DNA of 64,000 bases from Defluviicoccus sp. (GTDB taxonomy: Bacteria > Pseudomonadota > Alphaproteobacteria > MPNO01), in NCBI GenBank assembly GCA_028821395.1, contig JAPPGP010000141.1, positions 17,491 through 81,490 of the forward strand. The letters are read 5' to 3'. The position numbers and the translations under genes were made by a program. A model generated the notes under the pieces. That model did not search any database. It was given only the letters and a program-made list of their open reading frames with translations, and was not told where the DNA came from. Shown here piece by piece: positions 25,578-52,771 of this stretch (positions are counted from its first letter, which is position 1; every line of letters starts with the position of its first letter).

Positions 25578-27965
25578 ATGAGGGGTGCGGCGGAGAGGCG
25601 TTTGACGGAGCCGGTTCTCGAAGGCGGCGCGATCGGCAGTTCCGCGCCTCGCATCGCCGCCCGGCGGCTCGCGCACGGGCGCGGCCGCTATACCGACGAC
25701 ATCGTGCTGCCCCGGATGCTGCACGCGGCCTTCGTGCGCAGCCCGCACGCGCATGCGCGGATCGTCCGCGTCGACGGCGCGGAGGCGGCCCGCCGGCCTG
25801 GCGTGTTCCGCGTGGTGACGGGCGCCGACCTTGCCGACATCTGCCGGCCCATGCTGGCGATCGCGGCCCATCGGCCGGGCCACAAATCCGCGCCCCAGCC
25901 GGCGATGGCGCAGGATGTCGCCTACTGGCAGGGCCAGCCCGTGGCCGCGCTGGTGGCCGAGAGCCGCGCGGCGGCCGAGGACGCGGCCGAGCTGGTGGAA
26001 GTCGAGTACGAGCCGCTCGATCCCGTTGCCGACCCGGCGGAGGCGCTCGCTCCCGGGAGTCCGGCGATCCATCCTTCGCTCGGCGACAACCTGGCGTTTG
26101 CGCACAGGATCGAGGTCGGCGATGTCGACGCCGCCTTCGACTCGGCCGCCACGGTGGTGGAGCACGATTTCGACTTCGGCCGCCACACCGCGGTCACGCT
26201 GGAGCCCCGGGTGACCATCGCCGATTACCGGCCCGCCGACGGCACGCTGGTGGTCCACCAGTCGCACCAGTCGCCTTATCAGATGCAGGAGGTCTATGCC
26301 GCCCTGCTCGGCATCGACGATCACCGCGTGCGGGTGATCTGCCCCGACGTGGGGGGCGGGTTCGGGCTCAAGATCAACGTTCACGACGACGAGATCGCGA
26401 CGGCGGCGATCGCGAGGCTCCTGGGCCGGCCGGTCAAGTTCTGCGCCGACCGCCTGGAAGCCTTCGGTGCCGACGCGCATAGCCGCGATCACACGGTGCG
26501 CGGGCGCATCGCGGTGTCGGAGGGCGGCGAGATCCTCGCCATGGAGGTCGACGACCTGTCCGCGATCGGGGCGTATACCGCCTTCATCCGCTTCGGCATC
26601 GCCGAGGGCATGATGACGATCACCAATGCCGGCGCGCCCTATTGCGTGCCGGCCTATCGCGGCGCGATGCGGGCGGCCTATGTCAACAAGCCGATCGTCG
26701 GCATGTATCGCGGCGTCGGCGTGCCGATCGCCTGCGCGGTGACCGAGCAGCTCTGCGACCTGGCCGCGCACGCAATCGGCATGGACCCGGTCGCATTCCG
26801 CCGGATCAACTACCTCGATCCCGATACCCTGCCGGGCGCTTCCGTGGGCGGCATCCAGCTCCCGCGTATCGAATTCTCGCGCGCGCTCGACCGGCTGGTC
26901 GAGACCATGGGTTATGACGCGCTCCGCGCCGAGCAGGCCGCGCTGCGCGAGCGCGGCATACATCGCGGCATCGGAGTCGCCACCTTCATTGAGCCCACCG
27001 CCTACGGCCCCGGCTATTACGGCCCGTCCGAGGCGCCGGTCTCGACCCAGGAGGGAACCACCGTCAAGCTCGAGCCGTCGGGCAGGATCCGCTGCATCAC
27101 CAGCGTCACCGACCAGGGTCAGGGCACGCTCACCGCGATCGCCCAGATCGTCGCCGACCAGCTCGGCCTCGGCATCGACGAGATCGACGTGATCGCCGGC
27201 GACAGCGCGGTCACCCCGTTCGGCGGCGGCGCCTGGGCATCGCGCGGGCTGGCGATGGGCGGCGAGGCATCGCTTGAGGCGGCGCTCGCTCTCAAGGAGA
27301 ACGTGCTCGCGATCGCCGGGCCCATGCTGCAGGCCGATCCGGCGAGCCTCGACCTGAAGCGCGGCACGGTGGTCGACCGGGACGGCGGCACGCCCCGGCT
27401 CTCGCTCGGCGAAGTCGCCCGCATCGGCCACTTCCGCCAGGACACCCTGCCCGCCGATCTCCAGCCGGAGCTCGCCGTCACCCGCCACCACGTGCCCAAC
27501 CGGGCGCATTACTACGTCGCCTACGGCGTCCTCGGCTGCCATCTCGAGCTCGACCCGGAGACCGGCTCGATAGAGCTGCTCGGGGTCTGGGTGGCCGATG
27601 AGTGTGGCCGCATCGTCAACCCGCTCCTGGTCGACGAGCAGCTGCGGGGCGGGGTCGTCCAGGGGCTCGGCGCGGCGTTCTTCGAGGAATGCGTCTATGA
27701 CGGCAGCGGGCAGCTTCTCAACGGCACGCTCGCCGACTACCTGGTGCCAATGGCGACCGACATACCCGACATCGCGACCGCCCATATCGACGGGCTGGAA
27801 AAGACCACCAGGCTCGGTGCCAAGGGGGTGGGCGAGGGGGGGACCATCGGCGCCACTGCCGCCGCCTGGCTCGCGGTCAACGATGCGCTGGCGCCCTTCG
27901 GGAAAACGGTCTCGGCGCAGCCCTTCACCCCGGAACGCATCCTCGCGGCGATCGAGGGAAGGTGA
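25578..27965 (+). CDS. xanthine dehydrogenase family molybdopterin-binding large subunit (paralog A of a tandem pair)
   Basis: 795 aa. RRLAHGRGRYTDDIVLPRMLHAAFVRSPHAHARI, GMYRGVGVP loop, C-terminal RLGAKGVGEGGTIG. Confidence 0.9.
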   Translation: MRGAAERRLTEPVLEGGAIGSSAPRIAARRLAHGRGRYTDDIVLPRMLHAAFVRSPHAHARIVRVDGAEAARRPGVFRVVTGADLADICRPMLAIAAHRPGHKSAPQPAMAQDVAYWQGQPVAALVAESRAAAEDAAELVEVEYEPLDPVADPAEALAPGSPAIHPSLGDNLAFAHRIEVGDVDAAFDSAATVVEHDFDFGRHTAVTLEPRVTIADYRPADGTLVVHQSHQSPYQMQEVYAALLGIDDHRVRVICPDVGGGFGLKINVHDDEIATAAIARLLGRPVKFCADRLEAFGADAHSRDHTVRGRIAVSEGGEILAMEVDDLSAIGAYTAFIRFGIAEGMMTITNAGAPYCVPAYRGAMRAAYVNKPIVGMYRGVGVPIACAVTEQLCDLAAHAIGMDPVAFRRINYLDPDTLPGASVGGIQLPRIEFSRALDRLVETMGYDALRAEQAALRERGIHRGIGVATFIEPTAYGPGYYGPSEAPVSTQEGTTVKLEPSGRIRCITSVTDQGQGTLTAIAQIVADQLGLGIDEIDVIAGDSAVTPFGGGAWASRGLAMGGEASLEAALALKENVLAIAGPMLQADPASLDLKRGTVVDRDGGTPRLSLGEVARIGHFRQDTLPADLQPELAVTRHHVPNRAHYYVAYGVLGCHLELDPETGSIELLGVWVADECGRIVNPLLVDEQLRGGVVQGLGAAFFEECVYDGSGQLLNGTLADYLVPMATDIPDIATAHIDGLEKTTRLGAKGVGEGGTIGATAAAWLAVNDALAPFGKTVSAQPFTPERILAAIEGR

Positions 27966-30307
27966 TGAGCGGAGCCGCGATCGGGCGTTCCGTGGCGCGC
28001 CCCAACGCGCGGCGCGCGGCCTCGGGCCGCGGCCGTCACGTCGCCGATCTCGGATTCAATCGGCTGGTCGATGTCGCCTTCGTCCGCAGCCCCTACGCTC
28101 ATGCCCGGATCGTGTCGATCGACACGGAAGAGGCGGCGGGCCAGCCGGGCGTGGTGGCGGTGCTCACCGGGGCGGAGCTCGCCGAGCGGAGCCGGCCGTG
28201 GCTGGGCACGATGAAGAACGCGCCTTCTCTCCTCTCCGTTCCGCAATACGGCATGGCGGTCGATTGCGCGCGCTGGCAGGGCGAGCCCGTCGCCGCGGTC
28301 GTCGCCGAGGGCCGGGCACGCGCCGAGGACGCGGCGGAGCGCGTCGCCATCGTCTGGGAGGAGCTTGAGGCCGTCGCCGACGTGGAGACCGCGCTCGAAG
28401 AGGGCGCCCCGATCCTGCATCCCTCGCTCGGCACCAACCGGCTGTATGAGCGCGTTGTCGACACCGGAGATGCCGCTTCCGCCTTCGCCGCCGCGGATGT
28501 CGTCGTCGAAGGCGAGTTCCGCTTCGGCCGCCATACCGGCGTGCCGCTGGAGGCGCGCGCGATCGTCGCCGATTACGACCCGGGCGACCGCAGGCTCACC
28601 CTGCACTATGGCGGGCAGGCGCCGCACATGACGCAAATCCTGTTCGCCCGGCATCTCGGGCTCGCGGAACGCGACGTCCGGGTGATCGCCTACGATGTCG
28701 GCGGCGGGTACGGCATCAAGAGCCATCACTACGGCGACGAGTTCACCGCCGCCGCGCTGGCGATGCTGCTCGCCCGCCCGGTGCGGTACTGGGCCGACCG
28801 GCTGGAGTCCTTCGTCTCCGACGTCCATGCGCGGGACCACACGGTCCGGGGCCGGCTCGCGGTGGAGAAGGACGGCCGGATCGCGGCGCTGGAGATCGAC
28901 GACCTGGTCGGCGCCGGCGCCTATTCGTCCTACCCGCGCACCAGCTCGGTCGAGGCCAACCAGGTCCTCAACGTCTCCGGCGGACCCTACGCGATCGCGA
29001 ACTATCGTGGACGCACCCGGGTCGTGTTCCAGAACAAGGTGCCGATCTCGCAATATCGCGGGGTCGGCCATCCGATCGCCATCCTGACGGTCGAGGCCCT
29101 GATCGACCGGGCCGCGACCGCGCTCGGCACCGACCCGGCGGAGCTGCGGCGGCGGAACTTCGTGCCCGACGATGCGTACCCCGTTCGCGCGCCGTCCGGC
29201 GTCGGGCTCGACGACCTGTCGCACCAGGCGTGCTTCGAAGAGCTGCTGAGGCTGATGGATTACGACACGCTCCGCGCCGACCGGGACGAGAAGCGCAGCC
29301 AGGGCGTGCTCTGCGGCATCGGGCTCGCCTCGTTCATCAAGGGCACCAACCCGGGGCCGCAGATCTACGGACCCGCGGGCGTGCCCATCTCGGCGCAGGA
29401 CGGGTGCACCGTGCGCCTCGAGCCGTCCGGCGCGGTGACCTGCCTCGCCGGCGTCACCGAGCAGGGGCAGGGCACCGAGACCATCCTCGCCCAGGTGGTC
29501 GCCCAGTCGGTCGGCGTGCCCTTCGAGGCGGTCACCGTGATCACCGGCGACACCGATGCGGTGCCCTATGGCGGCGGCACCTACGGCTCGCGCGGCGGCG
29601 GGATCGGCGGCGAGTCGGCGCGGCGCGCGGGCGAGGCGCTGCGCGACGAGATCCTCGACCTCGCGGGCGCGCTGCTCCAGGCCGAGCCCGGATCGCTCGC
29701 CCTGCGCGACGGCGCCGTGGTCGAGCGCGCCGGCGGCACCCGGCGCATGACCCTCGCCGAGCTGGGAGATCTCGCCTTCTTCCGCTGCGGCGAGTTGCCC
29801 GACGGGGTTTATCCGTCGCTCACCCAGACCCGCCGCTTCCGGGTGCCGGAATACGTGTTCACCAACGGTGCCCACGGCGCCCAAATCGAGGTCGATCCCG
29901 AGACCGGGGAGGTCCGCATTCTCGGCTACTGGGCGGTCGAGGACGGCGGGCGGCTGATCAACCCCCTGCTCGCGGAAGAGCAGCTGCGCGGCGCCATCGT
30001 CCAGGGGCTCGGCGACGCGCTCTACGAGCACAGCCTGTACGACCGCGACGGCCAGCTTCTCAACGGCACCATGGTCGACTACCTGGTGCCGATGGCGGCC
30101 GAGATGCCCGATATCGTGCTCGCCCATGTCGAGACCCCGACATCGGTCTCCGGCCTCGGCGCCAAGGGGGTGGGCGAGTCCGGCACCGCCGCCGCGCCCG
30201 GCACGGTGTTCAACGCGGTTAACGACGCGCTGGCGCCGCTCGGCGCCGCCGTGGAGGCGATTCCGATCACCCCCGAATCGGTCCTCGCCGCGCTCGGCCG
30301 CGCCTGA
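27962..30307 (+). CDS. xanthine dehydrogenase family molybdopterin-binding large subunit (paralog B of a tandem pair)
   Basis: 781 aa. The start (GTG 27962 or ATG 27965) overlaps the stop of paralog A. SQYRGVGHP loop, C-terminal GLGAKGVGESGTA. Confidence 0.9.
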   Translation: MMSGAAIGRSVARPNARRAASGRGRHVADLGFNRLVDVAFVRSPYAHARIVSIDTEEAAGQPGVVAVLTGAELAERSRPWLGTMKNAPSLLSVPQYGMAVDCARWQGEPVAAVVAEGRARAEDAAERVAIVWEELEAVADVETALEEGAPILHPSLGTNRLYERVVDTGDAASAFAAADVVVEGEFRFGRHTGVPLEARAIVADYDPGDRRLTLHYGGQAPHMTQILFARHLGLAERDVRVIAYDVGGGYGIKSHHYGDEFTAAALAMLLARPVRYWADRLESFVSDVHARDHTVRGRLAVEKDGRIAALEIDDLVGAGAYSSYPRTSSVEANQVLNVSGGPYAIANYRGRTRVVFQNKVPISQYRGVGHPIAILTVEALIDRAATALGTDPAELRRRNFVPDDAYPVRAPSGVGLDDLSHQACFEELLRLMDYDTLRADRDEKRSQGVLCGIGLASFIKGTNPGPQIYGPAGVPISAQDGCTVRLEPSGAVTCLAGVTEQGQGTETILAQVVAQSVGVPFEAVTVITGDTDAVPYGGGTYGSRGGGIGGESARRAGEALRDEILDLAGALLQAEPGSLALRDGAVVERAGGTRRMTLAELGDLAFFRCGELPDGVYPSLTQTRRFRVPEYVFTNGAHGAQIEVDPETGEVRILGYWAVEDGGRLINPLLAEEQLRGAIVQGLGDALYEHSLYDRDGQLLNGTMVDYLVPMAAEMPDIVLAHVETPTSVSGLGAKGVGESGTAAAPGTVFNAVNDALAPLGAAVEAIPITPESVLAALGRA

Positions 30308-32969: not shown

Positions 32970-35066
32970 CTACTGATGGTGGTGCAGCACCTCCGAGTAG
33001 GTCGGGAACGGCCACGCGCGGCCGTCCACCAGGAGCTCCAGCTTGTCCGCCACGTCGCGCGCCGATTGCATGCACGGCTTCAGGGCCTCGTGCGCGTATG
33101 ACGCCGCCTCTCCGGGATCGTCGTGCGGGAAGGCGTCGTACGCATCGGCGAGCTTTTCGGTCTCCGAAAGCAGCTCTTCGACGAGCCCGCGCTTCCTGTC
33201 GAACATCGGCGACTGGAACCCGGAGTCGCGGTCGGCGCGGGTGTCCTCGATGGCGACCGGAAGCACCTGGGTCCTGAGGATGCGCAAGAGCGCGCGCGCC
33301 TCGATGTGGAGCTCGGTGGCGTAAGCCTCCTGCAGCACGCTCTGGCGCGCGGCCAGCTCGTGCTCGTTGAGGATGCCGAGCTCGCCCATCAGCTTGACGT
33401 TCTTCTCCGCCGTCAGGGCCTGGTAGGCTTCCGGGCTGCTCCTGAGGTGGATCAGGGCGTGCTTCTCGGCGTGCTCGTAGAGCGCGTCGGAGTAGCCGTC
33501 CCCGCTGAACAGGGCGCCCTGGTTCTCCTGGATGGTCTCGCGAATCACCTGATCGACGGGCTTGCCGGCGTCGACGTCGTCGCACATGTGCTTCAGGCTG
33601 TCGGCGAGCGCCGCGTTCACCATGGTCAGCGGGAACGCGATGTGCTGGTTGCCGCCGACGGCGCGGAACTCGAAGCGGTTGCCGCACCACGGGAACGGCG
33701 CGGTGCGGTTGCGGTCCTCCAGGTTGGCCCGCACGTCGGCGACCGGGGCCACGATCTCGATCTCCTTGCGCTCGTTTCCGTAGCCCGCGAAGTCGCCGCC
33801 CTCGGCGACCGCCTTCACATGGGCTTCCAGGCGCTCGCCCAGATGCAGCGTGATGATCGCGGGCGGCGCCTCCTGGGCGCCCAGCCGGTGGTCGTTGCCG
33901 GCGGTCGACACGCCGCAGCGCAGCAGGTCGCCGTGCCGGTTGACCCCGCGCAGCAGCGCCGCGACGAAGGCGATGAAACGCCGGTTCTCTTCCGCCGTGT
34001 CCCCCGGCACGAACAGGTTGGCGCCGGTGTCGGTATTGAGCCCCCAGTTGTTGTGCTTGCCGGTGCCGTTGATCCCGGCGAAGGGCTTCTCGTGGAACAG
34101 GATGGTGAATTCGTGGTCGAAGGCGAGGTCGCGAAGCACGTCCATGGCGAGCACGTTGGTGTCCGCCGCCAGGTTCGCGAGGCCGAAGACCGGCGAAATC
34201 TCGTGCTGTGCGGGGGCGACCTCGTTGTGCGTGCAATGGATCGAGATTCCGAGCTCCCACATCTTGTCGCGCGCCTCCGCCATGTAGCGGTTCACCCGGG
34301 GCGACAGCTTGGAGAAATAGTTGCCGTCCATCTCCTGTCCGCGCAGCGGCGCCGCACCCAGCAGCGTGCGCCCGGCGGCCACCAGGTCGGGCCGCGCCAG
34401 GTACTTCTCCCGGTCGATCAGAAAGAATTCCTGCTCCCATCCCACATTGCACACCACCTCCCTGGTCGAGCTGTCGCCGAGCAGCGAGAGCAGCCGCACG
34501 CTCTGCTCGTTGACCGCCATGTCGGCCCGCAGAAGCGGGGTCTTCTGGTCGAGGGCCTCGCCGTTCCAGGTGACGAAGGCGGACGGGATGTAGAGCGTCT
34601 GCCGGTAGACGAAAGGCGGCGATCCGGTGTCCCAGCCGATATAGGCCGCCGCCCGATGGGTCTCGCGCAGCCCGCCATTGGGGAAGGAGGAGCCGTCGGT
34701 CTCGGTCTGGAACAGCTCCGAGCCCGTCAGGTTGATGATCAGGCGATCGGTGGCGAAGTCCACCCCGACGAAGGTCTCCAGCTTCTCGCCATGGATCGCG
34801 CCCCGCATCGGCGAGAACCAGTGCGAATAGCCGATGCAGCCCTTCGACTGGGCCCACTCCCGTATCGACTTGGCCAGCGCGTTGGCGAAATCCCGATCCA
34901 TCGGGACCCCCGTCGCGCGGCACTGGGCGAGTGCGTAATAGACGTCCGGATCGACCAGCTTCTTCAGGATCGCGTCGTCCAGCACATTGCTGTTGATCAT
35001 CGCCAAGGCCGGCGGGAGGGCTACCTCCTGGGTCGGAGCCTCGTGCGTGGAGTGCGTGATTGCCAT
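32970..35066 (-). CDS. glnT: type III glutamine synthetase (GSIII)
   Basis: 698 aa, a size typical of GSIII. N-terminal ...YYALAQCRATGVPMD...SHWFSPMRG and a catalytic region (EQEFFLID, NEVAPAQHEISPVF, HEKPFAGINGTGKHNNW) match GS signatures in the GSIII arrangement. Confidence 0.85.
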   Translation of the reverse strand: MAITHSTHEAPTQEVALPPALAMINSNVLDDAILKKLVDPDVYYALAQCRATGVPMDRDFANALAKSIREWAQSKGCIGYSHWFSPMRGAIHGEKLETFVGVDFATDRLIINLTGSELFQTETDGSSFPNGGLRETHRAAAYIGWDTGSPPFVYRQTLYIPSAFVTWNGEALDQKTPLLRADMAVNEQSVRLLSLLGDSSTREVVCNVGWEQEFFLIDREKYLARPDLVAAGRTLLGAAPLRGQEMDGNYFSKLSPRVNRYMAEARDKMWELGISIHCTHNEVAPAQHEISPVFGLANLAADTNVLAMDVLRDLAFDHEFTILFHEKPFAGINGTGKHNNWGLNTDTGANLFVPGDTAEENRRFIAFVAALLRGVNRHGDLLRCGVSTAGNDHRLGAQEAPPAIITLHLGERLEAHVKAVAEGGDFAGYGNERKEIEIVAPVADVRANLEDRNRTAPFPWCGNRFEFRAVGGNQHIAFPLTMVNAALADSLKHMCDDVDAGKPVDQVIRETIQENQGALFSGDGYSDALYEHAEKHALIHLRSSPEAYQALTAEKNVKLMGELGILNEHELAARQSVLQEAYATELHIEARALLRILRTQVLPVAIEDTRADRDSGFQSPMFDRKRGLVEELLSETEKLADAYDAFPHDDPGEAASYAHEALKPCMQSARDVADKLELLVDGRAWPFPTYSEVLHHHQ

Positions 35067-35313
35067 GACGGTCCTTCCGCGAGAGCCATTTCCGGGAAGG
35101 GAAAGCTAATGCATGCGCGCGAGGTTCACCAAGAAAAACCGCGACCCGCAGCGGCGAAAGCAAGATTGCAATTCATTTGACCTGTTCGGCGAAAATGGAA
35201 AACTATTGAGCACAAGTGCGGCTCGGGATTCCGGCGCGAACGTCGTTGCGCAGGCACGAAACAGGCCACCACAACCGTGGGCCGCCTTTCTGGGAAGGTC
35301 TATAGAACACGCC

Positions 35314-35739
35314 GTGCTCCATCTATCGCTGAACAATGACTTGCGAGAACTTGCCGTCGCCGCGGAGAGAGTCGACGCGTTCTGCGCCGAACACGGCGTG
35401 TCGCCGGATATCGCATTCGCCGTCAACGTGTCGGTCGACGAGCTGCTGACCAACACCATCAGCTACGGTTTCGACGACGGCGATTCGCACCGGATCGAAA
35501 TGACCGTCCGCTTGCAGGACGGCGTGCTGGTGGTCGAGCTGGTGGATGACGCCACGCCCTACGATCCGACCCGGGCGCCGCATCCCGACATCGACGCATC
35601 GATCGAGGACCGCCCGATAGGCGGGCTCGGCGTCCACTTCGTTCGCGCGCTGATGGACGGGTTTCGCTATCGGCGCAGCGACGGGCGCAATATCGTGACC
35701 CTGACCAAGCGAGCGGAAGTCCGCCCGGCGGAGGGCTAG
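35314..35739 (+). CDS. RsbW/SpoIIAB-like anti-sigma-type serine protein kinase (HATPase_c_2)
   Basis: 141 aa from an in-frame GTG at 35314 (the track ORF opens at 35113). N-box VDELLTNTISYG, G1 DDATPYD, G2 GGLGVHFVRALMD. Convergent with the PP2C fusion gene. Confidence 0.75.
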   Translation: MLHLSLNNDLRELAVAAERVDAFCAEHGVSPDIAFAVNVSVDELLTNTISYGFDDGDSHRIEMTVRLQDGVLVVELVDDATPYDPTRAPHPDIDASIEDRPIGGLGVHFVRALMDGFRYRRSDGRNIVTLTKRAEVRPAEG

Positions 35740-35747
35740 CCCGGCGT

Positions 35748-38315
35748 TCACACGTCCTTGCCGTTGTAGCGCAACACGAGACAGGTGATGTCGTCCGACT
35801 GCTCGGCGTCGCCGACGAACTCGCCGACGGCCAGGGTGACGTTGCCGATCACCGTGTCCACCGGCGCTCCCGGGCCGATCGAGAGCGCGCTCTCGAGGCG
35901 GCTCTCGTCGAAGGTTTCGCCCTGAATGTTCATCGCCTCTGAGATGCCGTCGGTATAGAGAAACAGCGTATCGCCGACGCCGAGCGTCACCCGGTTCTCG
36001 TCGTATTCCAGCTCCGGCAGCACACCCACGGCGACGCCGCCGGTCAATGGCAGCGTCTCGATGGCGCCGGTGGTTCGGATGAGGAAGGGCGCGTTGTGAC
36101 CGGCATTGGCGTAGGTAAGAATCCCCGTCTTCGGGTCCAGGATGCCGTAGAACAGGGTCACGAACAGGTCGTGCGGGTTCTCCGACGAGATCCGGTCGTT
36201 GACCACGCGCATGCAGGCGCCGGCCTGGCCGATCTCCTGGGCGCTCGCGCGCATGACAGTCCGCGTGATCGCCATGAAGAACGCCGCGGCCACGCCCTTG
36301 CCGGAGACATCGGCGATCACCAGGCCGAGCCGGCCGTCCGGCAAGCTGAAATAGTCGTAGAAATCGCCGGCCATCTCGCGCGCCGGCGTCATCACCGCGT
36401 CGCCGGAATAGGCGTTATCGGGCGGCAGGGTCTTGGGCAGGATCGCGTGTTGCAGGGAGTGCGCGACCGCGAGCTCGTCTTCCATCCGGCGGTTGGCCTC
36501 GTCGAGCAGGGCGTTCTTGTTCGCCAGGTCGAGCGTGCGCTCGGCGACCAGGGCCTCGAGGTGCTCCCGCCGGGCCTGAACCTCGCGCGCCATGGTCTGG
36601 AAGGTGTGGATCAGCCGTCCGAGCTCGTCGCGCCGGTCGCGGAAGGGGTCGAGCGAGTCGGGCTCGAAGCTGCCCTGGTCCATTTCACCCGCGGCCTGGG
36701 TGAGCGCCGTGACCGGCCGCGTGATCCGGCGGGCCGACATGATCGCGGTCACCGCCCCGATCAGGAAGGCGGCGAGAGTGATCGCGAGTCCGAAATCGAT
36801 GTAGTCGCCCAGCAATTCGTCCAGATGGTCGCGCGGCATGTGGATCACCGCGACGCCGGTGGCGACGCCGCCGCGATCCAGGATGGGCGCCGCGACATGC
36901 AGCGCGTCGTCGCTGATGAAGGACTGCGTGGCCCCCTGGACGGCTCGGCCGGCGAGCGACCTGTCGGACGATCCGAACACCGGGCGCGGTCCGTGGTGCC
37001 CGGCGCCGGCGGCGACCGCGGCGGTGACCTTGAGGGATTCGTCGACCACCCAGATCGCCCGTATGCCGGGCTGAGCGGCCAGCGAGTCGAGCGCCGCGGC
37101 GAGGCCGATGGTCTCGCGCAGGCCCGTCGTCTTGTTGGCCACGCTGCCCACCAGAACGGTCCGCCCTTGACGGGAGCGAACCCCGAGATAGCGCAGCGGC
37201 AGCTCCAGGCCGTCCCTGGGCACGGACTTGAACGAGACCGAGAAGCGCCGCCCGGAGATCAGGGTCTGGAGGACCGGTCCATCCATTTCCCCGAGCGAAA
37301 TGTCGACGCCGGCCTGGCCGATCCCGTTGGTCGCGCGCACCGACGGCGTTCCCTCGGCGTCCAGCACCCAGACATCGTCGACGGCGGTGTTCGCCGTGAT
37401 TTCCGCGAGCTCGATGGAGAGCGCGCGGTCGTCGTCCCCCAGAATGTCGGCAAGTTGGCCCACCGCGATGGCTTGCGCCTCGTTCTCCGACACGATCACG
37501 CGGTCGATCTCGTCCGCGATCACCCCGACCCGGTTGGCTTCGCTCGCGATCAGCCCCGCGACCATCCGGGCCTGGTTTTCCGCCTGGTCGATCAGCGTGT
37601 CGCGCGCCAGCAATCCCAGCGCCACCGCGACGCTGAGAATGGCGATACCCACCGATCCCGTGACGATCAGGATCAGATGCCGCGACAGGCTGATGCTGGT
37701 ATCGCGGCGGCGCACATGGGCGAACCGCATCACCAGGGCGACGAGGCCGGCGAAACCGAGGAACCACCCCATCGCGTAGAGGTAGATCCAGAAAGAGAGC
37801 TGCGGTCGGGCGAGCGCGGCGATCACCGTGTCGACCCGGAACACCATCTCGGGGACGCCGATGACGGAGGCGGTGGCCGACGCCATCACGATGATCAGGA
37901 AGTAGTTGGTCCACGACGGCAGGAACAGCAGCGCCTCGGTGGTCTGGCCCCGCCTGAGATGCCGCAGCGCGGCGAGCGCGTTGTCGGAGACAAATCCCGC
38001 GACCGCGATCGAGAGCGCCAGCGACGCCTTGAGCCATACCGGCACGGTGAACGCGATGCCGAAGACCACGAAGCTGCCCGGGACCATATAGGCGAGGTAG
38101 AACAGCATGACGAAGGTCGGCGCGCTGGCTGCGACCAGCGTCAGCGCGCTGGCGCCCTGGCTCACGCGGCGAATGCGGCCGCCGCGCAATGCCGCGAGCG
38201 CCGCCCCGAGAACCGTGCCGATCGCCATCGCGACCAGCGAAACCAGCATGTTCCAGCCGAATCCGACCGCCAGATACGGCGTCCAGGTAATCAGGACGTC
38301 GACGACGTTGGGCAT
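35748..38315 (-). CDS. fusion protein: polar-amino-acid ABC permease-type TMD + TM-flanked periplasmic sensor domain + HAMP + PP2C/SpoIIE (RsbU-like) phosphatase
   Basis: 855 aa. Residues 1-200 align by eye with HisM/GlnP-type permeases (...LPSWTNYFLIIVMASATASVIGVPEM versus [26 protein letters not shown]). TM helices lie near 213-236 and 507-527 and flank a ~270-aa hydrophilic domain. HAMP (RRITRPVTALTQAAGEMDQGSF...ELGRLIHTFQTMA). PP2C motifs MAGDFYDYF, IADVSGKGVAAAFF, LYTDGISEA, QSDDITCLV. Confidence 0.85.
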   Translation of the reverse strand: MPNVVDVLITWTPYLAVGFGWNMLVSLVAMAIGTVLGAALAALRGGRIRRVSQGASALTLVAASAPTFVMLFYLAYMVPGSFVVFGIAFTVPVWLKASLALSIAVAGFVSDNALAALRHLRRGQTTEALLFLPSWTNYFLIIVMASATASVIGVPEMVFRVDTVIAALARPQLSFWIYLYAMGWFLGFAGLVALVMRFAHVRRRDTSISLSRHLILIVTGSVGIAILSVAVALGLLARDTLIDQAENQARMVAGLIASEANRVGVIADEIDRVIVSENEAQAIAVGQLADILGDDDRALSIELAEITANTAVDDVWVLDAEGTPSVRATNGIGQAGVDISLGEMDGPVLQTLISGRRFSVSFKSVPRDGLELPLRYLGVRSRQGRTVLVGSVANKTTGLRETIGLAAALDSLAAQPGIRAIWVVDESLKVTAAVAAGAGHHGPRPVFGSSDRSLAGRAVQGATQSFISDDALHVAAPILDRGGVATGVAVIHMPRDHLDELLGDYIDFGLAITLAAFLIGAVTAIMSARRITRPVTALTQAAGEMDQGSFEPDSLDPFRDRRDELGRLIHTFQTMAREVQARREHLEALVAERTLDLANKNALLDEANRRMEDELAVAHSLQHAILPKTLPPDNAYSGDAVMTPAREMAGDFYDYFSLPDGRLGLVIADVSGKGVAAAFFMAITRTVMRASAQEIGQAGACMRVVNDRISSENPHDLFVTLFYGILDPKTGILTYANAGHNAPFLIRTTGAIETLPLTGGVAVGVLPELEYDENRVTLGVGDTLFLYTDGISEAMNIQGETFDESRLESALSIGPGAPVDTVIGNVTLAVGEFVGDAEQSDDITCLVLRYNGKDV

Positions 38316-38317
38316 CG

Positions 38318-39925
38318 CTACGTCCCGTGCGCCCTACGTTCCCAGCCGCGGAGCGCCCACACCGTGGCGAAGACCAGCAGGAAGTAGCACAGCAGCAGCA
38401 GGTTCATCATCACGACGTCATTGCCCTTCTCGGCGACGATCGCCGTGCTGGCGTGCACCAGCTCCGGCAAGGCGAGCGTGCTCGCCATCCCGGTTGCCTT
38501 GACGATGTTGACGGAATTGCCCGCCACGGCGGCGTGGCACAGATCCAGCGCCCGGCGGAACTCGCCCACGGAGAACCCCAGCCTGCCGCCGGGACCGGCC
38601 GCCACGTCCGCGGCAAGGGAGAACGACACGGCGTTGCTGGCCGCGGCGTAGAGCGACAGCACTGCGGCGGCAAGCGAGAACGCATCGAGCGTGAAGCCGT
38701 AAGCGAACAGGATGCCGCCGATCCCGAAGAAGAAGACGTATAGCTGAAGCAACGGGGGCGTCATCCGGAGCACCGCGCACAGCCCCTGCAGGCACGGCGC
38801 CACGACGACGGTCCGGCGATGCAGGATCCAGCCGAAGAGGGCGCCCAGCACGATGCTTCCCACGACCGTCGCGACGGAGAGCGCGACCGTCAGGAACAGG
38901 CCGTGGAGAAATACGTTGCGGTCGAGCGGATCGTAGACCGGGCTCACGTCGAGACCCGTCGATTCCTTGAACGCCATGGATATCGCCGACAGGCCGCCCA
39001 GCTCCTGGCTGGTGACGAGCGCGCGTTCCCGGCAGGCCAGCGGCCAGCTTCCCACATCGTCGCGACGGCATACGAATTCGCCGGATTCGTCGGTCTCCCG
39101 CCAGGTCTCGCGCGCTTTCCGCAAGTAGGGCGAGGGGGGCAGGTTCCACAGCTTCTCCAGCTCCTGGAGGAACCCCTCGCGGTGCCACTTCGCCAGGGTG
39201 TCGCCGAGCAGACGGTCGAGCGGTCCGCCCCCCTCCTCCTTCCTGATCGCGATCGCCCAGGGCGCCACGAAGCGCGTCGGCAGCGACACCGCAAACCCGT
39301 CCCACTCCCCGCTCGCCAGGGCGCTCAACAGGTTGACCTCGTCGTACAACCAGCCGACGCAGTGACCGTTTCGCAAGGCGAGCGCGGCTTCGCGGGTGGA
39401 GTTGAGGGAGATGGTGGTGACGAGGAGGCGTTGGGCGGCCAGGCGGTTCCATATCGAGCCCTGGACGCTGCACAGCGTCCGACCGCGCAGGTCCTCCCAC
39501 GAGGAGATTCCCGAGTCTTCCCGCATCAGCACGTTGGCGCCGTCGCCGTAATACTGCGGTTCCACCATGTGGACCAGCCGCCGGCGGGCGAGGTTGTCGC
39601 CCAGCGTCGCGACGACGACATCGATCTCGCCCCGCGCCAGCTTCTGCAGCCGGTTCGCGCTGGTCACCGGGGTCAGCCGCACCGGCACGCCGACGGCCTC
39701 CGCCAGGCCGCCCGCGACGTCGACGTCATAGCCCACCAGCTTGCCGGACTCGTTGCGCTCCCCGAAGGGGTGGTAGTCCGCCTTCACGCCGACGATCAGG
39801 TGGCCCCGCGCCCGTATTTCGTCGAGCCGGTCGGCCGCCGCCGGGCCCGCGCCCAGCAACCAGGCGGTGCTCAACAGGAGCACATGAACGAGAAGCGAAA
39901 ATCGCCGGAGCGAACCTTTCGTCAT
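38318..39925 (-). CDS. fusion protein: SBP_bac_3-type periplasmic amino-acid-binding domain + polar-amino-acid ABC permease-type TMD
   Basis: Preferred ATG is at 39925, giving a signal peptide MTKGSLRRFSLLVHVLLLSTAWLLGAGPAAA. An in-frame GTG at 39946 is the alternative. SBP region: RGHLIVGVKADYHPFGERNESGKLVGYDVDVAGGLA. C-terminal TMD: VLRMTPPLLQLYVFFFG ... AGNSVNIVKATGMASTLALPEL. The stop lies 2 nt before the start of the next gene. Confidence 0.85.
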   Translation of the reverse strand: MTKGSLRRFSLLVHVLLLSTAWLLGAGPAAADRLDEIRARGHLIVGVKADYHPFGERNESGKLVGYDVDVAGGLAEAVGVPVRLTPVTSANRLQKLARGEIDVVVATLGDNLARRRLVHMVEPQYYGDGANVLMREDSGISSWEDLRGRTLCSVQGSIWNRLAAQRLLVTTISLNSTREAALALRNGHCVGWLYDEVNLLSALASGEWDGFAVSLPTRFVAPWAIAIRKEEGGGPLDRLLGDTLAKWHREGFLQELEKLWNLPPSPYLRKARETWRETDESGEFVCRRDDVGSWPLACRERALVTSQELGGLSAISMAFKESTGLDVSPVYDPLDRNVFLHGLFLTVALSVATVVGSIVLGALFGWILHRRTVVVAPCLQGLCAVLRMTPPLLQLYVFFFGIGGILFAYGFTLDAFSLAAAVLSLYAAASNAVSFSLAADVAAGPGGRLGFSVGEFRRALDLCHAAVAGNSVNIVKATGMASTLALPELVHASTAIVAEKGNDVVMMNLLLLCYFLLVFATVWALRGWERRAHGT

Positions 39926-39942
39926 CGTGAAACAGGCACCGA

Positions 39943-40701
39943 TCACGGCCGCGCCACGATCAGAAAACCGTAGCCGACCGCCGCCGGGGCGACTGCGCAG
40001 GCCAGATCGTCCAGCTTACCCAGCAGGGAGTTGCCGACCACCGCGGTCTCCGGCAGCAGGCTTTCCGCCTCGACGCTCTCGATTCGGAAGCCGGCGGTCG
40101 ACAATTCATCGCGTGCCTCGGCGGGCGAGAACAGGTGATAGAACATCTCGATACTACCAGCCTCGGAACGGCGCGCGTACAAAACATCGCCGGGCTCCAG
40201 ATCGCCGTCCCGCACCATCGGGGCTGCGGCGCGCTGTTCCGCGTGGAACCTGCGTCGCGCATTGGGCAGGCTGAGCACCAGAACGCCGTCCGGCTTCAGG
40301 ATTTCCCGGATCGAGGCGAGCACAGCCGCGCGCTCCTTCCGCCCCGCTATATGGGCCAGGACGCCGAATGCGAGCAGCGCGAGGTCGAATCCGCGCGGAA
40401 ACGACTTGGCCAGGGCCGCCGCGTCGGCGTTGCGCACCGAGAGACGTTCGCCGCCGATGAAGGTCGCCAGACGCTCCGACAGCATGCGGCAGGCGGTCGG
40501 GCAGACGTCGTAAGCCACGCCCGTCGCGCTTGTGTGTTGCAGGAGGGGCAGGGTGTAGCGCCCCGTCCCCGCGCCGAAATCGACAAAGCGGCCGTCCGCC
40601 GGCATCAGGCGCAGCACCCTCCGCAACGTGCGCCGGTTCGGGGCCGGATAACGGCGGTCGTAGAGCCCCGATGCCAGATACTCATCGTAGCTGTGGGACA
40701 T
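39943..40701 (-). CDS. class I SAM-dependent methyltransferase
   Basis: 252 aa from the ATG at 40701 (alternative upstream ATG at 40809). SAM motif I VDFGAGTGRYTLPL and post-I/II motifs DLALLAFGVLAHI, LKPDGVLVLS. First gene of the minus-strand operon. Confidence 0.75.
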   Translation of the reverse strand: MSHSYDEYLASGLYDRRYPAPNRRTLRRVLRLMPADGRFVDFGAGTGRYTLPLLQHTSATGVAYDVCPTACRMLSERLATFIGGERLSVRNADAAALAKSFPRGFDLALLAFGVLAHIAGRKERAAVLASIREILKPDGVLVLSLPNARRRFHAEQRAAAPMVRDGDLEPGDVLYARRSEAGSIEMFYHLFSPAEARDELSTAGFRIESVEAESLLPETAVVGNSLLGKLDDLACAVAPAAVGYGFLIVARP

Positions 40702-40918
40702 GTCCGGCGCGATCGCCTGAGATTCGGCCACGCCGGCGGCCACGCAATCCTTGATGCCGCTGGGTGAGATGTTGGCGTCTCCGCTGGCCCCATCGAGATG
40801 CCGACGCATCACGTGGAGATATGAAATACGGGTCGCGCCGCCCGGTAGCGGAGAGCGGTGCTCAAATTCTCTCGAACTCGGATAAATTCTGCCCGGGCTC
40901 GAGATTGTCGCTGCCTCC

Positions 40919-40930
40919 ATTGTTGACAAT
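40919..40930 (+). promoter_or_regulatory. palindrome ATTGTTGACAAT containing a TTGACA -35-like hexamer; related half-sites at 40904-40909 (ATTGTC) and 40968-40973 (GACAAT)
   Basis: Read directly in the unusually AT-richer 368-bp divergent intergenic region between the methyltransferase/sensor operon and the SBP-amt genes. AATAGT/ATAGTA lies 18-19 nt downstream of TTGACA. Confidence 0.3.
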
Positions 40931-41069
40931 TTTGGTCCCAGGTTCAAATAGTAAGTCCAGACCCCTCGACAATCCAAGCCGGGTTGCGACGTTCTGACGC
41001 AGGGATGGTGGGTCGGTGCCGCGTTGTGAGCGGCATCCCGGATCGGTCGGTCAGGAGGAGCAAGGAAGG

Positions 41070-41978
41070 GTGAAGCTGCGACGAGCGGGCCGGTTGAGCG
41101 TCCCGAGGACGGCGGTAGCGCTGATCGGTGCGGTGCTGACGACGGTCGGCGTCGCGGCGACGGCGGCGGCAGAGAGCGTGCTGAGCCGAATCGCCGAGGA
41201 CGGATTGCTCCGCGCCGGCACCCGGGCCAGCGCCGCACCGTTCGCCCAGAGAATGCCGACCGGAGAATTTCGCGGATTCTCCGTCGATCTTCTGCAGGAG
41301 ATTCGGGCCGCGGTGCAGCGCGAGGTGGGCCGCCCGGTGCGCATCGAGCTTCATGAAGTCACGCCGAGCGACCGTCTGCAGCGGGTCGCCCGGGGCGAGC
41401 TCGATATCGTCTGCGGCATCACCACGCCGACCTGGGACAGGGAGGCGACCGTCGATTTTTCGCTTCCCTTCTTCCGCGACGGTACCCGGGTGATGGTGTA
41501 CCGGCGCGGCGCCGGAGAGACCGTCGATGTCGCGAAGCTCAATATCGGCGTCGTCAAGGGCACCACGACCGTCGACGTTCTCAAGGACAGCCTCCCGGGG
41601 ACGCGGCTCAGCGAATTCCCCAACATGGCCGCGGCGATGAGCGGGTTCGAGAAAGGCGAGGTCGACGGGGTCGCCAATGTCGGCGTCGTGCTGCTCGGTC
41701 TTGCCGAGCGCAGCGAGCCACGGCGCAGCGTCGTGCTGCTGCCGAGGACCCGAGCCCTGGCGACGGAAAGCCTCGCCTGTGTGCTGCCGCAGAACGACAG
41801 CCGCTGGCGGGATCTGGTCAACCGAACCCTGGTCGGCATGTTCGGCAACGTGCAGCAGTTCAGGGGACGCTACGAAGAAGTCTACAATCGTTGGTTCGGG
41901 CGGGACGGCGCGTTGTTCTACCCGCTCGATCGCGCGACCCGCGACTATCTCGCCGACGTGTCCATCTGGGCCAAGTGA
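41070..41978 (+). CDS. periplasmic amino-acid-binding protein (SBP_bac_3 family), free-standing
   Basis: Preferred GTG is at 41070, just downstream of AGGAGG and GGAAGG RBS-like elements (the track ORF opens at 41016). Signal peptide (..TAVALIGAVLTTVGVAATAAA). LRAGTRASAAPFAQ...FRGFSVDLLQEI...GELDIVCG is typical of the family. Confidence 0.8.
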   Translation: MKLRRAGRLSVPRTAVALIGAVLTTVGVAATAAAESVLSRIAEDGLLRAGTRASAAPFAQRMPTGEFRGFSVDLLQEIRAAVQREVGRPVRIELHEVTPSDRLQRVARGELDIVCGITTPTWDREATVDFSLPFFRDGTRVMVYRRGAGETVDVAKLNIGVVKGTTTVDVLKDSLPGTRLSEFPNMAAAMSGFEKGEVDGVANVGVVLLGLAERSEPRRSVVLLPRTRALATESLACVLPQNDSRWRDLVNRTLVGMFGNVQQFRGRYEEVYNRWFGRDGALFYPLDRATRDYLADVSIWAK

Positions 41979-42109
41979 TCGCCGGGTTTTCTCCGCACCC
42001 GCGGCGCGGCCCGACAGACTCCGGCGGCGCGGCAAACCCATCGAGGTTGATTGCCGCCCCGTTCGCGGCCTATAAGAATGGCATTCCCTGAACCGTAGTT
42101 TCTGTTCGC

Positions 42110-43666
42110 GTGACTTCCCGAGAACGGCTGGATGGCTGCGCCGTGAGCGCCAATGCGAACCGGAGGGCATGTAATATCATGTCGCACATCGCGAATTCGA
42201 TCGGATCGATGGCCACCGAACGCAGGCCGGGGGGTGGATCGACCCCGTCAGGCGCCACGCGGTTCGATGCGGGACACCGCGACGGCGCTCGGGACGACGG
42301 CGTCTCGCCAGGATGGCGGCGCGCCGCCCCGCTCGGCCTCGCCGTCGCTGCCCTGCTGCTGCTTCCGGCGGGCGCGCATGCGGCGGTGGCCGACGAGACG
42401 CAATTCGTCCTGAACAGCTTCTCGTTCCTGATCTGGGGCGCGCTGGTGATGTGGATGTGCGCCGGTTTCACCATGCTCGAATCGGGCTCGGTGCGCACCA
42501 AGAACGCCTCGGTCATCTGCCTCAAGAATATCGGCCTCTATTCGATCGCCGGGTTGATGTTCTACCTCGTCGGCTACAACATCATGTATGTCGGGGTCCC
42601 CGAAGGCGGCTGGTTCGGCACGCTGACGCTGTTCTACGGCACCACCGGCGAAGAAATGGCGCTGCTCGGCGGCGGCGACGACGCGGCCAAGGCGGGCGCC
42701 GCGGTGGTCAAGAACGGCTACTCGACGATGTCCGACTGGTTCTTCCAGATGGTGTTCGTCGCCACCACCGCCTCGATCGTCTCCGGCACGCTGGCCGAGC
42801 GGGTCAAGCTCTGGTCCTTCCTGCTGTTCATCACCGTGCTCACGGCGATCATCTACCCGGTCATCGGGTCGTGGACCTGGGGCGGCGGCTGGCTGTCGGA
42901 GATGGGCTTCCAGGACTTCGCCGGTTCGACGATCGTCCACTCGACGGGCGGCTGGGCGGCGCTCGCCGGGGCGCTGGTGGTCGGCGCGCGGAAGAACAAG
43001 TTCCGCGCCGACGGCAGCGTGAAAGTCACCCCGCCATCCAACGTGCCCGCGGTGACGCTGGGCGTGTTCATTCTCTGGCTCGGCTGGTTCGGGTTCAACG
43101 GCGGCTCGCAGCTCGCGCTCGGCGGCGCCGCCGATGCGGTGGCGATCAGCAATATCCTCGCCAACACCAATCTCGCCGCGGCCGCGGGCGTGATCGCCGC
43201 GATGGCGCTGTCGCGTCCGGTTCTCGGGCGCGTCGATCTTCTCGCCAGCCTGAACGGCGCGATCGGCGGCCTGGTGGCGATCACCGCGGGGCCCGACATC
43301 GTCCAGCACTACTGGGCGGTGATAATCGGCGCGGTCGGCGGCTGCATCGTGGTCCTCGGGATCAAGCTGCTCGACCGGCTCAAGGTCGACGACGTGGTCG
43401 GGGCGGTTCCGGCGCATCTGTTCGCCGGCGTCTGGGGCACGCTCGCGGTGTGCATCGCCGCGGGCGGCGATATAGGTGTGCAGATCACCGGCATCCTGGC
43501 CATCGGGGCGTTCGTGTTCGCCGCCTCCTGGGTGGTATGGTGGGCGATCGATGCGACCATCGGCGCCCGCGTCACGCCGATAACGGAAGAGCTGGGGCAG
43601 GATGTCGCGGAGCTGGGAATCGAAGCCTATCCGGAATTCGTCGTCGTCCCCGACATGGACGACTGA
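42110..43666 (+). CDS. amt: ammonium transporter (Amt family)
   Basis: The core from ...FLIWGALVMWMCAGFTMLESGSVRTKN to ...DVAELGIEAYPEF shows Amt signatures (FAGSTIVHSTGGWAALAGALVVG, WFGFNGGS). The start is uncertain (ATGs at 42110, 42179, 42209). A cleavable signal-like segment LGLAVAALLLLPAGAHA is present. Confidence 0.9.
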   Translation: MTSRERLDGCAVSANANRRACNIMSHIANSIGSMATERRPGGGSTPSGATRFDAGHRDGARDDGVSPGWRRAAPLGLAVAALLLLPAGAHAAVADETQFVLNSFSFLIWGALVMWMCAGFTMLESGSVRTKNASVICLKNIGLYSIAGLMFYLVGYNIMYVGVPEGGWFGTLTLFYGTTGEEMALLGGGDDAAKAGAAVVKNGYSTMSDWFFQMVFVATTASIVSGTLAERVKLWSFLLFITVLTAIIYPVIGSWTWGGGWLSEMGFQDFAGSTIVHSTGGWAALAGALVVGARKNKFRADGSVKVTPPSNVPAVTLGVFILWLGWFGFNGGSQLALGGAADAVAISNILANTNLAAAAGVIAAMALSRPVLGRVDLLASLNGAIGGLVAITAGPDIVQHYWAVIIGAVGGCIVVLGIKLLDRLKVDDVVGAVPAHLFAGVWGTLAVCIAAGGDIGVQITGILAIGAFVFAASWVVWWAIDATIGARVTPITEELGQDVAELGIEAYPEFVVVPDMDD

Positions 43667-43767
43667 GGGATGGCCTGCCTGCCCCGGCGGCCCGCATTCG
43701 GGTACAATGGGGCGCGACACCGGCCGAAGGCGTGCGTTCATGGAATCAGCCGCAGGACACGAAGACG

Positions 43768-44106
43768 ATGGATTTGACGACTGAACGAAGCGAAAACGTC
43801 GTGTGCGTGGACGTGAAGGGGCGAATCGACGGATCCACCGCCGTCGCCTTCGAGGAGTCCGTGCGCAACGCACTGGAGGAATCCGACCGCGCCATGATCA
43901 TGGATTTCCGGGAGCTCGCCTATATCAGCAGCGCCGGGCTCCGGGTGATCCTGCTGACGGCGAAGTCGCTGCAGAGCCAGGACGCGAAGCTGGTGCTGTG
44001 CTCGCTCTCCGATCAGATTCGCGAAGTGTTCAAGATCAGCGGCTTCGACAAGCTTCTGCCGATTCACGAGACCAGGGAAGAGGCGCGCGCATCCCTCGGC
44101 GCCTGA
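43768..44106 (+). CDS. STAS-domain anti-sigma-factor-antagonist-like protein (RsbV/SpoIIAA type)
   Basis: 112 aa from the in-frame ATG at 43768. Single STAS domain with a conserved phospho-acceptor context, DFRELAYISSAGLRVILL, and C-terminal FKISGFDKLLPIH. Confidence 0.85.
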   Translation: MDLTTERSENVVCVDVKGRIDGSTAVAFEESVRNALEESDRAMIMDFRELAYISSAGLRVILLTAKSLQSQDAKLVLCSLSDQIREVFKISGFDKLLPIHETREEARASLGA

Positions 44107-52752: not shown

Positions 52753-52771
52753 ACCGCCCGGAGGGCCCGCC

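Follow-up and report, generated by a model that had tools for sequence, protein, structure and literature searches.

What do two permease-like membrane domains do when they are encoded beside a serine-phosphorylation switch and no ABC ATPase gene lies near them? The question is raised by a locus beside and between the genes for the type III glutamine synthetase (GSIII) and the ammonium transporter (Amt) of a Defluviicoccus sp. (Rhodospirillales) metagenome-assembled genome (MAG; GenBank contig JAPPGP010000141.1, positions 17,491 to 81,490, GC ~70%); this 64-kb stretch, the whole of the DNA analysed, is called the window below. One of the two transmembrane domains (TMD1) is fused to a periplasmic substrate-binding protein (SBP), a fusion written here as SBP::TMD1, and the other (TMD2) begins an 855-aa protein that ends in a PP2C phosphatase. 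An RsbW-type kinase, a STAS protein and a second, free SBP are encoded nearby. A preliminary description had read these genes as a polar-amino-acid ABC importer converted into a sensor. Our results favour that reading, through the loss of the coupling helix, the lack of a neighbouring ATPase across the family and the fusion of TMD2 to both enzymes of the switch. Judged from sequence comparison and structure models, the locus probably, though by no means surely, encodes a membrane receptor that arose as a relic of such an importer and drives the PP2C/kinase/STAS switch.

Two permease domains lacking an intact ATPase-coupling helix

Window genes were annotated with Pfam and NCBIfam. Among the Pfam models that the preliminary description had expected to match, SBP_bac_3, HAMP, SpoIIE, HATPase_c_2 and STAS did so, but the permease model BPD_transp_1 found neither TMD1 nor TMD2, even at E<=10 with the isolated domains; the permease homology was therefore established by other routes. 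The NCBIfam model TIGR01726 (HEQRo_perm_3TM) and the cystine, glutamate and ectoine permease models match both TMDs at E 2e-7 to 2e-8, with scores below the curated cut-offs, over aa 2-146 of the 855-aa protein and aa 345-538 of SBP::TMD1 (TIGR01726 at E 2e-8, aa 345-438). The sole PDB sequence match for either domain is ArtQ (4YMS_D) of the Art(QN)2 importer. The TMD2 profile, in an exhaustive hidden Markov model (HMM) search of 1.84 billion representative proteins, reaches Pfam-called BPD_transp_1 proteins at E 1e-25 to 1e-31. Just 1345 representatives pass E<=1e-3 in this search and just 55 pass E<=1e-30; the TMD2 family is a small, strongly divergent permease offshoot. The TMD1 and TMD2 profiles also match each other (hhalign probability 95.7%, E 1e-8). 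By homology, then, both are divergent polar-amino-acid (PAAT/HEQRo) ABC permease domains, as had been proposed. In Foldseek searches with the multidomain models, the first 50 matches were all to PP2C or SBP domains and swamped the TMD parts. Remoter TMD2-like domains (E 1e-18 to 1e-23) are joined to binding domains of the NMT1_3 type in three proteins of 645-657 aa (P0447, P0464 and P0498 in our numbering), which may represent a further lineage of permease relics with a tethered SBP.

In type I importers the nucleotide-binding domain (NBD) docks on a coupling helix formed by the EAA loop, which connects transmembrane (TM) helices TM3 and TM4 and as a rule is conserved better than any other part of the permease. 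TMD2 aligns with ArtQ residues 8-122 and 145-195 and leaves ArtQ 123-144, about 20 residues with the EAA coupling helix, unmatched. ArtQ has 67 residues from the AY motif to VIGxxEL, TMD1 has 61 and TMD2 has 47. In the AlphaFold2 (AF2) model of the 855-aa protein (pLDDT 72, pTM 0.36), TM3 (93-121) and TM4 (131-153) are separated by a helix of four residues (125-128). The deletion is found in all 22 diverse family members aligned, and the shortened loop is itself well conserved (SDNALAALRHLRRGxxxEALLFLPSWT). The equivalent TMD1 loop is near full length and has no EAA glutamate (PGGRLG in the window); it is the least conserved segment of TMD1, with a mean column entropy of 2.07 vs 0.7-1.7 for the helices. 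On these alignments and this model, TMD2 has lost the helix that couples a permease to its ATPase, and TMD1 has kept it only in degenerate form. The motifs TPPLLQLY/PTFVMLFYL and KATGMAS..PEL/MASSTASVIGVPEL are almost invariant in the TMDs. We read this combination of conserved motifs and degenerate loops as periplasmic and gate functions kept and NBD docking lost.

We surveyed related loci for a cognate ATPase and for the company that the two domains keep. A one-genome-per-species scan with an SBP::TMD1 alignment gave 44 loci, labelled as alphaproteobacterial MAGs except for one labelled Anaerolineae (L042); a metagenome scan with a TMD2 alignment gave 69 further loci, and gene-context look-ups added more. 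After annotation by tblastn and locally built HMMs, 120 distinct loci had TMD2. Closed MAG chromosomes, OY763326.1 among them, also carry the SBP::TMD1-TMD2 pair. Distances were counted in the 63 loci whose flanks reach 6 kb or more to either side, and in none of these 63 locus sequences is an ABC ATPase encoded within 3 kb of TMD2. The sole ABC ATPase of the window (62965-63834) is of the NitT/TauT type, in agreement with the preliminary description, which had noted no NBD gene nearby and one of another family at 63 kb. Since the coupling motif and the cognate ATPase both fail as tests, we do not file the locus as an ABC importer.

ATPases farther from TMD2 belong to other families, and several stand beside their own permease genes. 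They include a ZnuC beside an ABC-3 permease and Zur (L002), PotA types with TOBE_2 and SBP_bac_8, DppD/F types, LivG/F, and tandem-NBD sugar/nucleoside types. The ATPases of L040, L042, L049, L088, L089 and L074 were considered as the missing partner and rejected, being of the PotA (TOBE_2), tandem-NBD sugar/nucleoside or Dpp type; the PotA-type ATPases of L040 and L049 adjoin their own SBP_bac_8 gene, and that of L040 also two BPD_transp_1 permease genes. The most divergent loci repeatedly adjoin importer genes for other nitrogen-rich solutes, of the PotA/PotD type or of the sugar/nucleoside type with tandem NBDs (L040 3250-7910, L042, L049 15403-17347, L088/L089). This may be coincidence or a functional neighbourhood.

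Fusions and gene linkage to a partner switch

Two fusions had been described in the window, and they differ in how widely they hold. SBP::TMD1 is fused in 53 of 54 loci tested. The joining of TMD2 to PP2C is limited to the Defluviicoccus clade, being found in the window and 13 other species-level genomes; this 855-aa form makes up 22 protein clusters at >=69% identity, and the window protein is 100% identical to a protein of assembly GCA_028818945.1. Elsewhere TMD2 is a separate gene of 210-225 aa whose stop codon overlaps the PP2C start (4-nt overlap). The TMD2::PP2C fusion is a derived, clade-specific state, and most relatives have three separate genes. Assembly artefacts were considered and rejected as the source of the fusions, which recur in many independent assemblies (the 22 clusters and 13 other genomes).

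Assemblies GCA_900129325.1 and GCA_003590945.1, of the cultured Kaistia soli DSM 19436 and Oleomonas cavernae, carry another fusion, of TMD2 to an RsbW-like kinase (368-384 aa), which is also found in two protein clusters that are <50% identical to each other; the shortened TMD2 loop is kept and is followed by HATPase_c_2. A third type joins TMD2 to an SBP (L049, P0364). By AF2-based prediction the topology is consistent, with five helices running N-out to C-in and then either a cytoplasmic kinase or a TM-periplasmic-TM-HAMP-PP2C arrangement. TMD2 is fused to each of the two opposing enzymes of the switch, and this is the strongest evidence that the transporter relic serves as the switch's input device.

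Gene linkage points the same way. SBP::TMD1 is directly upstream of TMD2 in all 110 testable cases among the 120 loci. A sensor PP2C gene lies within 3 kb of TMD2 in 60 of the 63 loci with long flanks; within 8 kb are a free SBP in 61, STAS in 44 and the kinase in 24. The association of the SBP::TMD1-TMD2 cassette with PP2C persists through at least 5 different gene orders, which argues for functional coupling.

Some loci depart from this pattern. The sequence OZ219856.1 carries two cassettes, one (L019) with PP2C and kinase and without STAS, the other (L020, 12326-13225) with free SBP, SBP::TMD1, TMD2, kinase and STAS and without PP2C; the pair suggests cross-talk or shared components between paralogous receptors. 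The PP2C-less cassette of a Stellaceae MAG (L050, 711-7046) is divergent from genes for a 2111-aa multi-HAMP-repeat protein and a hybrid histidine kinase, which may be an alternative signalling partner. In another locus (L110) the cassette and a STAS-kinase pair are separated by the gene for a SulP transporter to which STAS and cNMP-binding domains are fused (12348-14603), and a second SBP-TMD1-TMD2 set lies at 18-20.5 kb. In a long-read MAG (L001) Amt is split into two open reading frames (ORFs; 4274-5662) and the kinase is called at 75 aa (11989-12216), both probably through assembly indel errors. Because such errors occur, absences in single loci need care.

The three switch proteins, described earlier as a triad, are recognized as such by Pfam and NCBIfam, and by their sequences all keep catalytic or acceptor motifs. 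PP2C retains GDFYD, DVSGKG, TDG and DDIT, which are metal-binding motifs, and its Foldseek matches are the RsbU domain of Rv1364c, RssB and SiaA. The kinase has an N-box ELLTNTISYG and a G2 box GGLGV; the N-box ExxxN and G2 GGLG are conserved in 37-38 of 40 orthologs, and by these two boxes we predict a HATPase_c_2 serine kinase. The STAS protein scores 89.9 bits with TIGR00377, above the cut-off of 53.45. Its phospho-acceptor context, given before as ISSAG, reads YISSAGL in the window, and all 69 orthologs have the acceptor serine, in the pattern Y-[IMVL]-[SGA]-S-[AVM]-G-[LF]; we take it to be equivalent to Ser58 of SpoIIAA and Ser56 of RsbV.

Window features of the receptor locus are collected in Table 1. 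Every gene of the preliminary description was recovered at, or within a few codons of, the place it had given, including the methyltransferase that heads the receptor operon. The gap between SBP::TMD1 and TMD2::PP2C is exactly 2 nt as reported (TAG stop, 'cg', ATG start). The kinase and PP2C genes are convergent, with 8 nt between their stop codons. Elsewhere in the window, 25578-30307 holds two tandem genes for xanthine-dehydrogenase-family molybdopterin-binding large subunits (795 and 781 aa), their ORFs overlapping by 4 nt and followed by an acyl-CoA ligase and then an NAD-dependent epimerase.

Table 1. Genes and domains of the receptor locus, in window positions
Feature	Position	Strand	Assignment and remarks
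GSIII (GlnN)	32970-35066	-	Pfam GSIII_N, Gln-synt_C, Gln-synt_C-ter; divergent from kinase gene
RsbW/SpoIIAB-type serine kinase, 141 aa	35314-35739	+	Pfam HATPase_c_2 E 2e-25
TMD2::PP2C protein, 855 aa	35748-38315	-	Pfam HAMP E 2.5e-10, SpoIIE/PP2C E 1e-47
TMD2, N-terminal 205 aa of the 855-aa protein	37701-38315	-	NCBIfam cystine permease E 2e-7
TM helix, periplasmic double PAS/Cache-like domain and second TM helix, aa ~211-531	36723-37685	-	AF2 secondary structure
HAMP, coiled coil and PP2C/SpoIIE, aa 528-855	35748-36733	-	PP2C part ~35766-36410
SBP::TMD1 fusion protein, 535 aa	38318-39925	-	Pfam SBP_bac_3 E 5e-21; alternative GTG start at 39946; order: N-terminal signal/anchor helix, SBP_bac_3 (~39098-39829), Cys-containing linker, five-helix TMD1 (~38324-38929)
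Class I SAM-dependent methyltransferase	39943-40743	-	Pfam Methyltransf_12/23/25/11; first gene of receptor operon
Free periplasmic SBP_bac_3 protein	41070-41978	+	Pfam E 1.7e-20; NCBIfam GrrP-like 131 bits, under cut-off; divergent
Amt	42179-43666	+	Pfam Ammonium_transp E 2e-94
Single-domain STAS (anti-sigma-antagonist type)	43768-44106	+	Pfam STAS E 3e-22; 101 nt 3' of amt

Ligands, neighbouring genes and possible outputs

The locus has two family-3 SBPs (SBP_bac_3), one tethered and one free. In the AF2 model of SBP::TMD1 (pLDDT 83) the tethered SBP finds ArgBP, DEBP, Mycobacterium tuberculosis (Mtb) GlnH and the substrate-binding domains of GlnP by Foldseek. Its residues T107, R114/R115 and D195 are invariant; we take these to be the positions that bind the amino-acid carboxylate and amine in family-3 SBPs such as GlnH and HisJ, and by them the domain looks competent for amino-acid binding. 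Four cysteines of the periplasmic part (C152, C189, C286 and C298) are invariant in 51 homologs, some of them within a CRRxxxGxWPLxCRE motif of the SBP-TMD1 linker, and probably form disulfides. The sensor domain of the 855-aa protein is modelled by AF2 as a TM-flanked double PAS/Cache-like fold. Matches to dCache_1 were repeated, in the window protein and its orthologs, at sub-threshold scores, and no sequence relative of this domain was found in the PDB. The methyltransferase gene is directly upstream of SBP::TMD1 in all clades but the one with Znu neighbours, and is kept nearby in Kaistia and Oleomonas; comparison of its product with PDB and NCBIfam gave generic small-molecule class I methyltransferases only, and nothing that points to a substrate.

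The preliminary description had placed the locus in ammonium or glutamine metabolism. This holds in two clades, where amt-STAS and GSIII are kept, and not for the family, since Amt lies within 8 kb of TMD2 in 15 of the 63 loci and GSIII in 12. Among Amt-containing locus entries, 17 of 20 have amt and then STAS on the same strand ~100 nt apart. The second clade is rearranged, with kinase-Amt-STAS-GSIII-SBP divergent from methyltransferase-SBP::TMD1-TMD2-PP2C, and again keeps the amt-STAS order; GSIII thus adjoins the cluster in two clades with different gene orders. Neither the window nor the 54 loci examined contain a PII/glnK gene. Because amt is followed by STAS and no PII gene is near, STAS occupies the usual operon position of glnK, unlike the arrangement of the AmtB-GlnK pair. 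In the window the free SBP gene, amt and STAS share a strand; their intergenic gaps show no terminator-like site, a promoter-like site precedes the first gene (40923-40952), and the three are likely one operon. That promoter-like site was the one telling result of the sigma-70 and terminator scans. A search of the window for sigma-54 -24/-12 promoters found 17 vs 16.7 expected, none of them in the relevant intergenic regions. Farther out in the window are other nitrogen genes: glmU and glmS (glutamine-dependent amidotransferase) upstream (20527-23766), and an amidase gene with an ornithine cyclodeaminase-family gene downstream (50784-53770).

The genes beside STAS differ in other clades. In one STAS is next to glcDEF and a LysR gene; in another it is divergent from an NCS2 nucleobase permease gene. 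The STAS neighbours vary by clade, and the family is therefore not intrinsically nitrogen-linked; a nitrogen reading is limited to the Defluviicoccus clade and the one other. The changing neighbours suggest direct outputs at the protein level. We also observed a longer array 3' of the cassette and PP2C (L090 14402-19578; also L087, L095 and L097), consisting of genes for a GlcNAc-2-epimerase-like protein, STAS, an isoamylase/GlgX-like protein, STAS and kinase. This interleaving of STAS with glycogen-type enzymes hints that the switch has variable 'client' proteins.

The receptor reading can be put as a sequence of steps. The receptor would consist of the binding domain tethered to TMD1, its partner TMD2 and the second, free SBP. 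A ligand, probably an amino acid or related nitrogen compound, would load the binding proteins, and these would dock on a TMD1/TMD2 heterodimer that may no longer transport, and possibly also on the Cache-like periplasmic domain of the phosphatase. Docking would shift the conformation of the membrane complex, which would set the balance of HAMP-PP2C phosphatase and RsbW-like kinase and, through it, the phosphorylation of STAS at its invariant serine. Unphosphorylated STAS would sequester the kinase and so free the partner that the kinase had bound, or would act directly on a client protein. The likeliest clients in the Defluviicoccus clade would be the ammonium transporter and/or GSIII, the transporter because STAS holds the usual operon position of glnK.

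How such a receptor would act on its targets can be argued in two ways. The output may be the classical one, with the kinase as anti-sigma factor for a distal sigma factor and with Amt and GSIII as regulon members or coincidental neighbours. The kinase and STAS do match the RsbW/SpoIIAB and anti-sigma-antagonist models of NCBIfam, and in several clades they lie away from any transporter; yet STAS is found again and again behind one 'client' gene or another (amt, glycogen enzymes) or beside NCS2, and tblastn with RpoE and SigF, at limited sensitivity, found no sigma-70-family gene in the window, as had been stated before, or in 54 loci. Partner switches whose output is not a sigma factor are known, SiaABCD among them. 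All told we rate a classical output as somewhat unlikely. The other way goes further: no sigma factor would take part, and the switchable STAS of an ATPase-free TMD1/TMD2 receptor would itself gate or regulate the neighbour encoded with it. We think this unlikely in so specific a form. If it were true, STAS would replace the PII protein GlnK at the ammonium channel and would act on NCS2 permeases or glycogen enzymes in other clades, a modular 'STAS-client' control that works post-translationally and takes its input from the sensing of extracellular amino acids.

Competing readings, known systems and meaning

The two TMDs could still form a working importer, with an ATPase encoded elsewhere or shared with another polar-amino-acid system, and the PP2C/kinase pair could sense its flux or conformation, much as in BceAB-BceS and PstSCAB-PhoU-PhoR. 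We judge this distinctly unlikely. The near full length of the TMD1 cytoplasmic loop, the high conservation of the periplasmic/gate motifs TPPLLQLY and KATGMAS..PEL in both TMDs and the ligand-competent look of both SBPs would suit an importer, and ATPase sharing between importers is known in other ABC families. But the coupling helix is gone from TMD2 in every member; the TMD1 loop, without its EAA glutamate, varies more than any other segment, where canonical importers show the reverse; none of the 63 loci has the close ATPase that PAAT operons normally have; and the C-terminus of TMD2, the expected NBD site, carries a kinase or a TM-sensor-PP2C in the fusions. Very improbable is an ordinary SBP-dependent sensor phosphatase like ScrB-ScrC or TorT-TorS, with the free SBP acting on the Cache-like domain and SBP::TMD1/TMD2 forming an unrelated system, perhaps with the methyltransferase: the phosphatase does have its own TM-flanked Cache-like domain, a free SBP is within 8 kb in nearly all loci (61/63) and PP2C-less methyltransferase-SBP::TMD1-TMD2 cassettes exist (L050, L052, L080), but two independent TMD2 fusions, with PP2C and with kinase, the presence of PP2C in 60/63 loci over at least 5 gene orders and the stop/start codon overlaps between genes all tie the two sets together.

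Several points weigh against the receptor that we prefer. The AF2 model of the 855-aa protein is only of moderate quality. The TMD1 loop has a near-normal length (61 vs 67 residues) and an RLG remnant, and a distal ATPase could still serve TMD1. The G1 box of the kinase is atypical, DDA and not DxG, and the kinase and STAS genes are non-adjacent in many loci. The cassette lacks PP2C in 3 of 63 loci (L020, L050, L080) and in L052, and so may have a function of its own. The nitrogen link is missing from most clades, where the STAS neighbours are glcDEF, NCS2 permeases and glycogen enzymes. The co-conserved methyltransferase is left unexplained.

Known systems share parts of this arrangement. The Rsb system of Chlamydia trachomatis (RsbU, RsbW, RsbV1/RsbV2) senses metabolites and has no dedicated sigma factor adjacent (PMC13463777). 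Common to both are a TM sensor phosphatase with periplasmic ligand-binding domain, HAMP and PP2C, an RsbW-type kinase and STAS substrates. Unlike the system proposed here, chlamydial RsbU binds TCA-cycle intermediates directly by its own periplasmic domain, with sigma-66 as proposed target, and has no ABC-permease-like partner, tethered or free SBP, or methyltransferase. SiaA is the top NCBIfam match of the PP2C protein (E 5e-30) and one of its Foldseek matches (PDB 6K4E); at 104.8 bits, however, it stays far below the SiaA cut-off of 700, and the protein is therefore not a SiaA ortholog. Pseudomonas aeruginosa SiaABCD likewise has a membrane HAMP-PP2C phosphatase, a partner kinase and a phospho-switch protein, but SiaC is a non-canonical STAS, the output is the diguanylate cyclase SiaD and there are no transporter-like parts. 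By analogy, the C-terminal 650 residues of the 855-aa protein may work like Chlamydia RsbU or Pseudomonas SiaA, as an ortholog of neither.

The input side has parallels of its own. In the actinobacterial GlnH-GlnX-PknG-GarA/OdhI pathway glutamate and nitrogen metabolism are under the control of cytoplasmic Ser/Thr phospho-signalling, to which a family-3 SBP reports extracellular aspartate and glutamate by way of a membrane protein (PMC6069109, PMC9769921, PMC8050422). The logic of amino-acid SBP, membrane protein and phospho-signalling is shared, and Mtb GlnH resembles the tethered SBP structurally, whereas GlnX is a four-helix bundle that works with a Hanks-type kinase and an FHA substrate and without PP2C, RsbW or STAS. 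As with TorT/TorS, ScrB/ScrC and GlnH/GlnX, an SBP gene is found near a sensor with a TM-flanked periplasmic domain. Art(QN)2 (4YMS) and Lactococcus lactis GlnPQ share the fold and family of the TMDs, and GlnP also the N-terminal SBP-TMD fusion; the locus differs from both in its TMDs, which fall below the Pfam BPD_transp_1 threshold, have the EAA helix deleted or degenerate and include one that is fused to signalling domains, and in the lack of an NBD gene nearby. Transporter homologs that act as sensors include UhpC, yeast Ssy1, Snf3 and Rgt2 and Amt-fused sensor kinases, with BceAB-BceS as a co-sensor. None of these, to our knowledge, derives from a type I ABC importer TMD pair without its ATPase, and none feeds a partner switch.

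A 2021 review of SBP-mediated signalling covers chemoreceptors, sensor kinases, c-di-GMP enzymes and one Ser/Thr kinase, and lists neither a PP2C or partner-switch system nor a receptor derived from a permease (PMC8050422). We found no published description of an ATPase-less ABC-like receptor with a partner switch in the full-text literature searched, and the remark in the preliminary description that no system of this composition had been described stands to that extent. The locus is, in our assessment, a real, conserved and undescribed transporter-derived input for partner switching, whose function and output we infer. If this is true, it would be the first case known to us in which type I ABC importer TMDs have been kept as a signalling receptor with no ATPase.

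Many bacteria other than Firmicutes have partner-switching modules, but few of the inputs and non-sigma outputs of these modules have been defined. The conserved family of ~120 loci gives a concrete, testable input of this kind, two amino-acid-type SBPs on a relic ABC permease pair, and genetic testing is possible because cultured hosts are known in Kaistia soli DSM 19436 and Oleomonas cavernae. Defluviicoccus is a glycogen-accumulating competitor in wastewater phosphorus removal, and for this organism the locus suggests a control of ammonium uptake and GSIII that is independent of PII.

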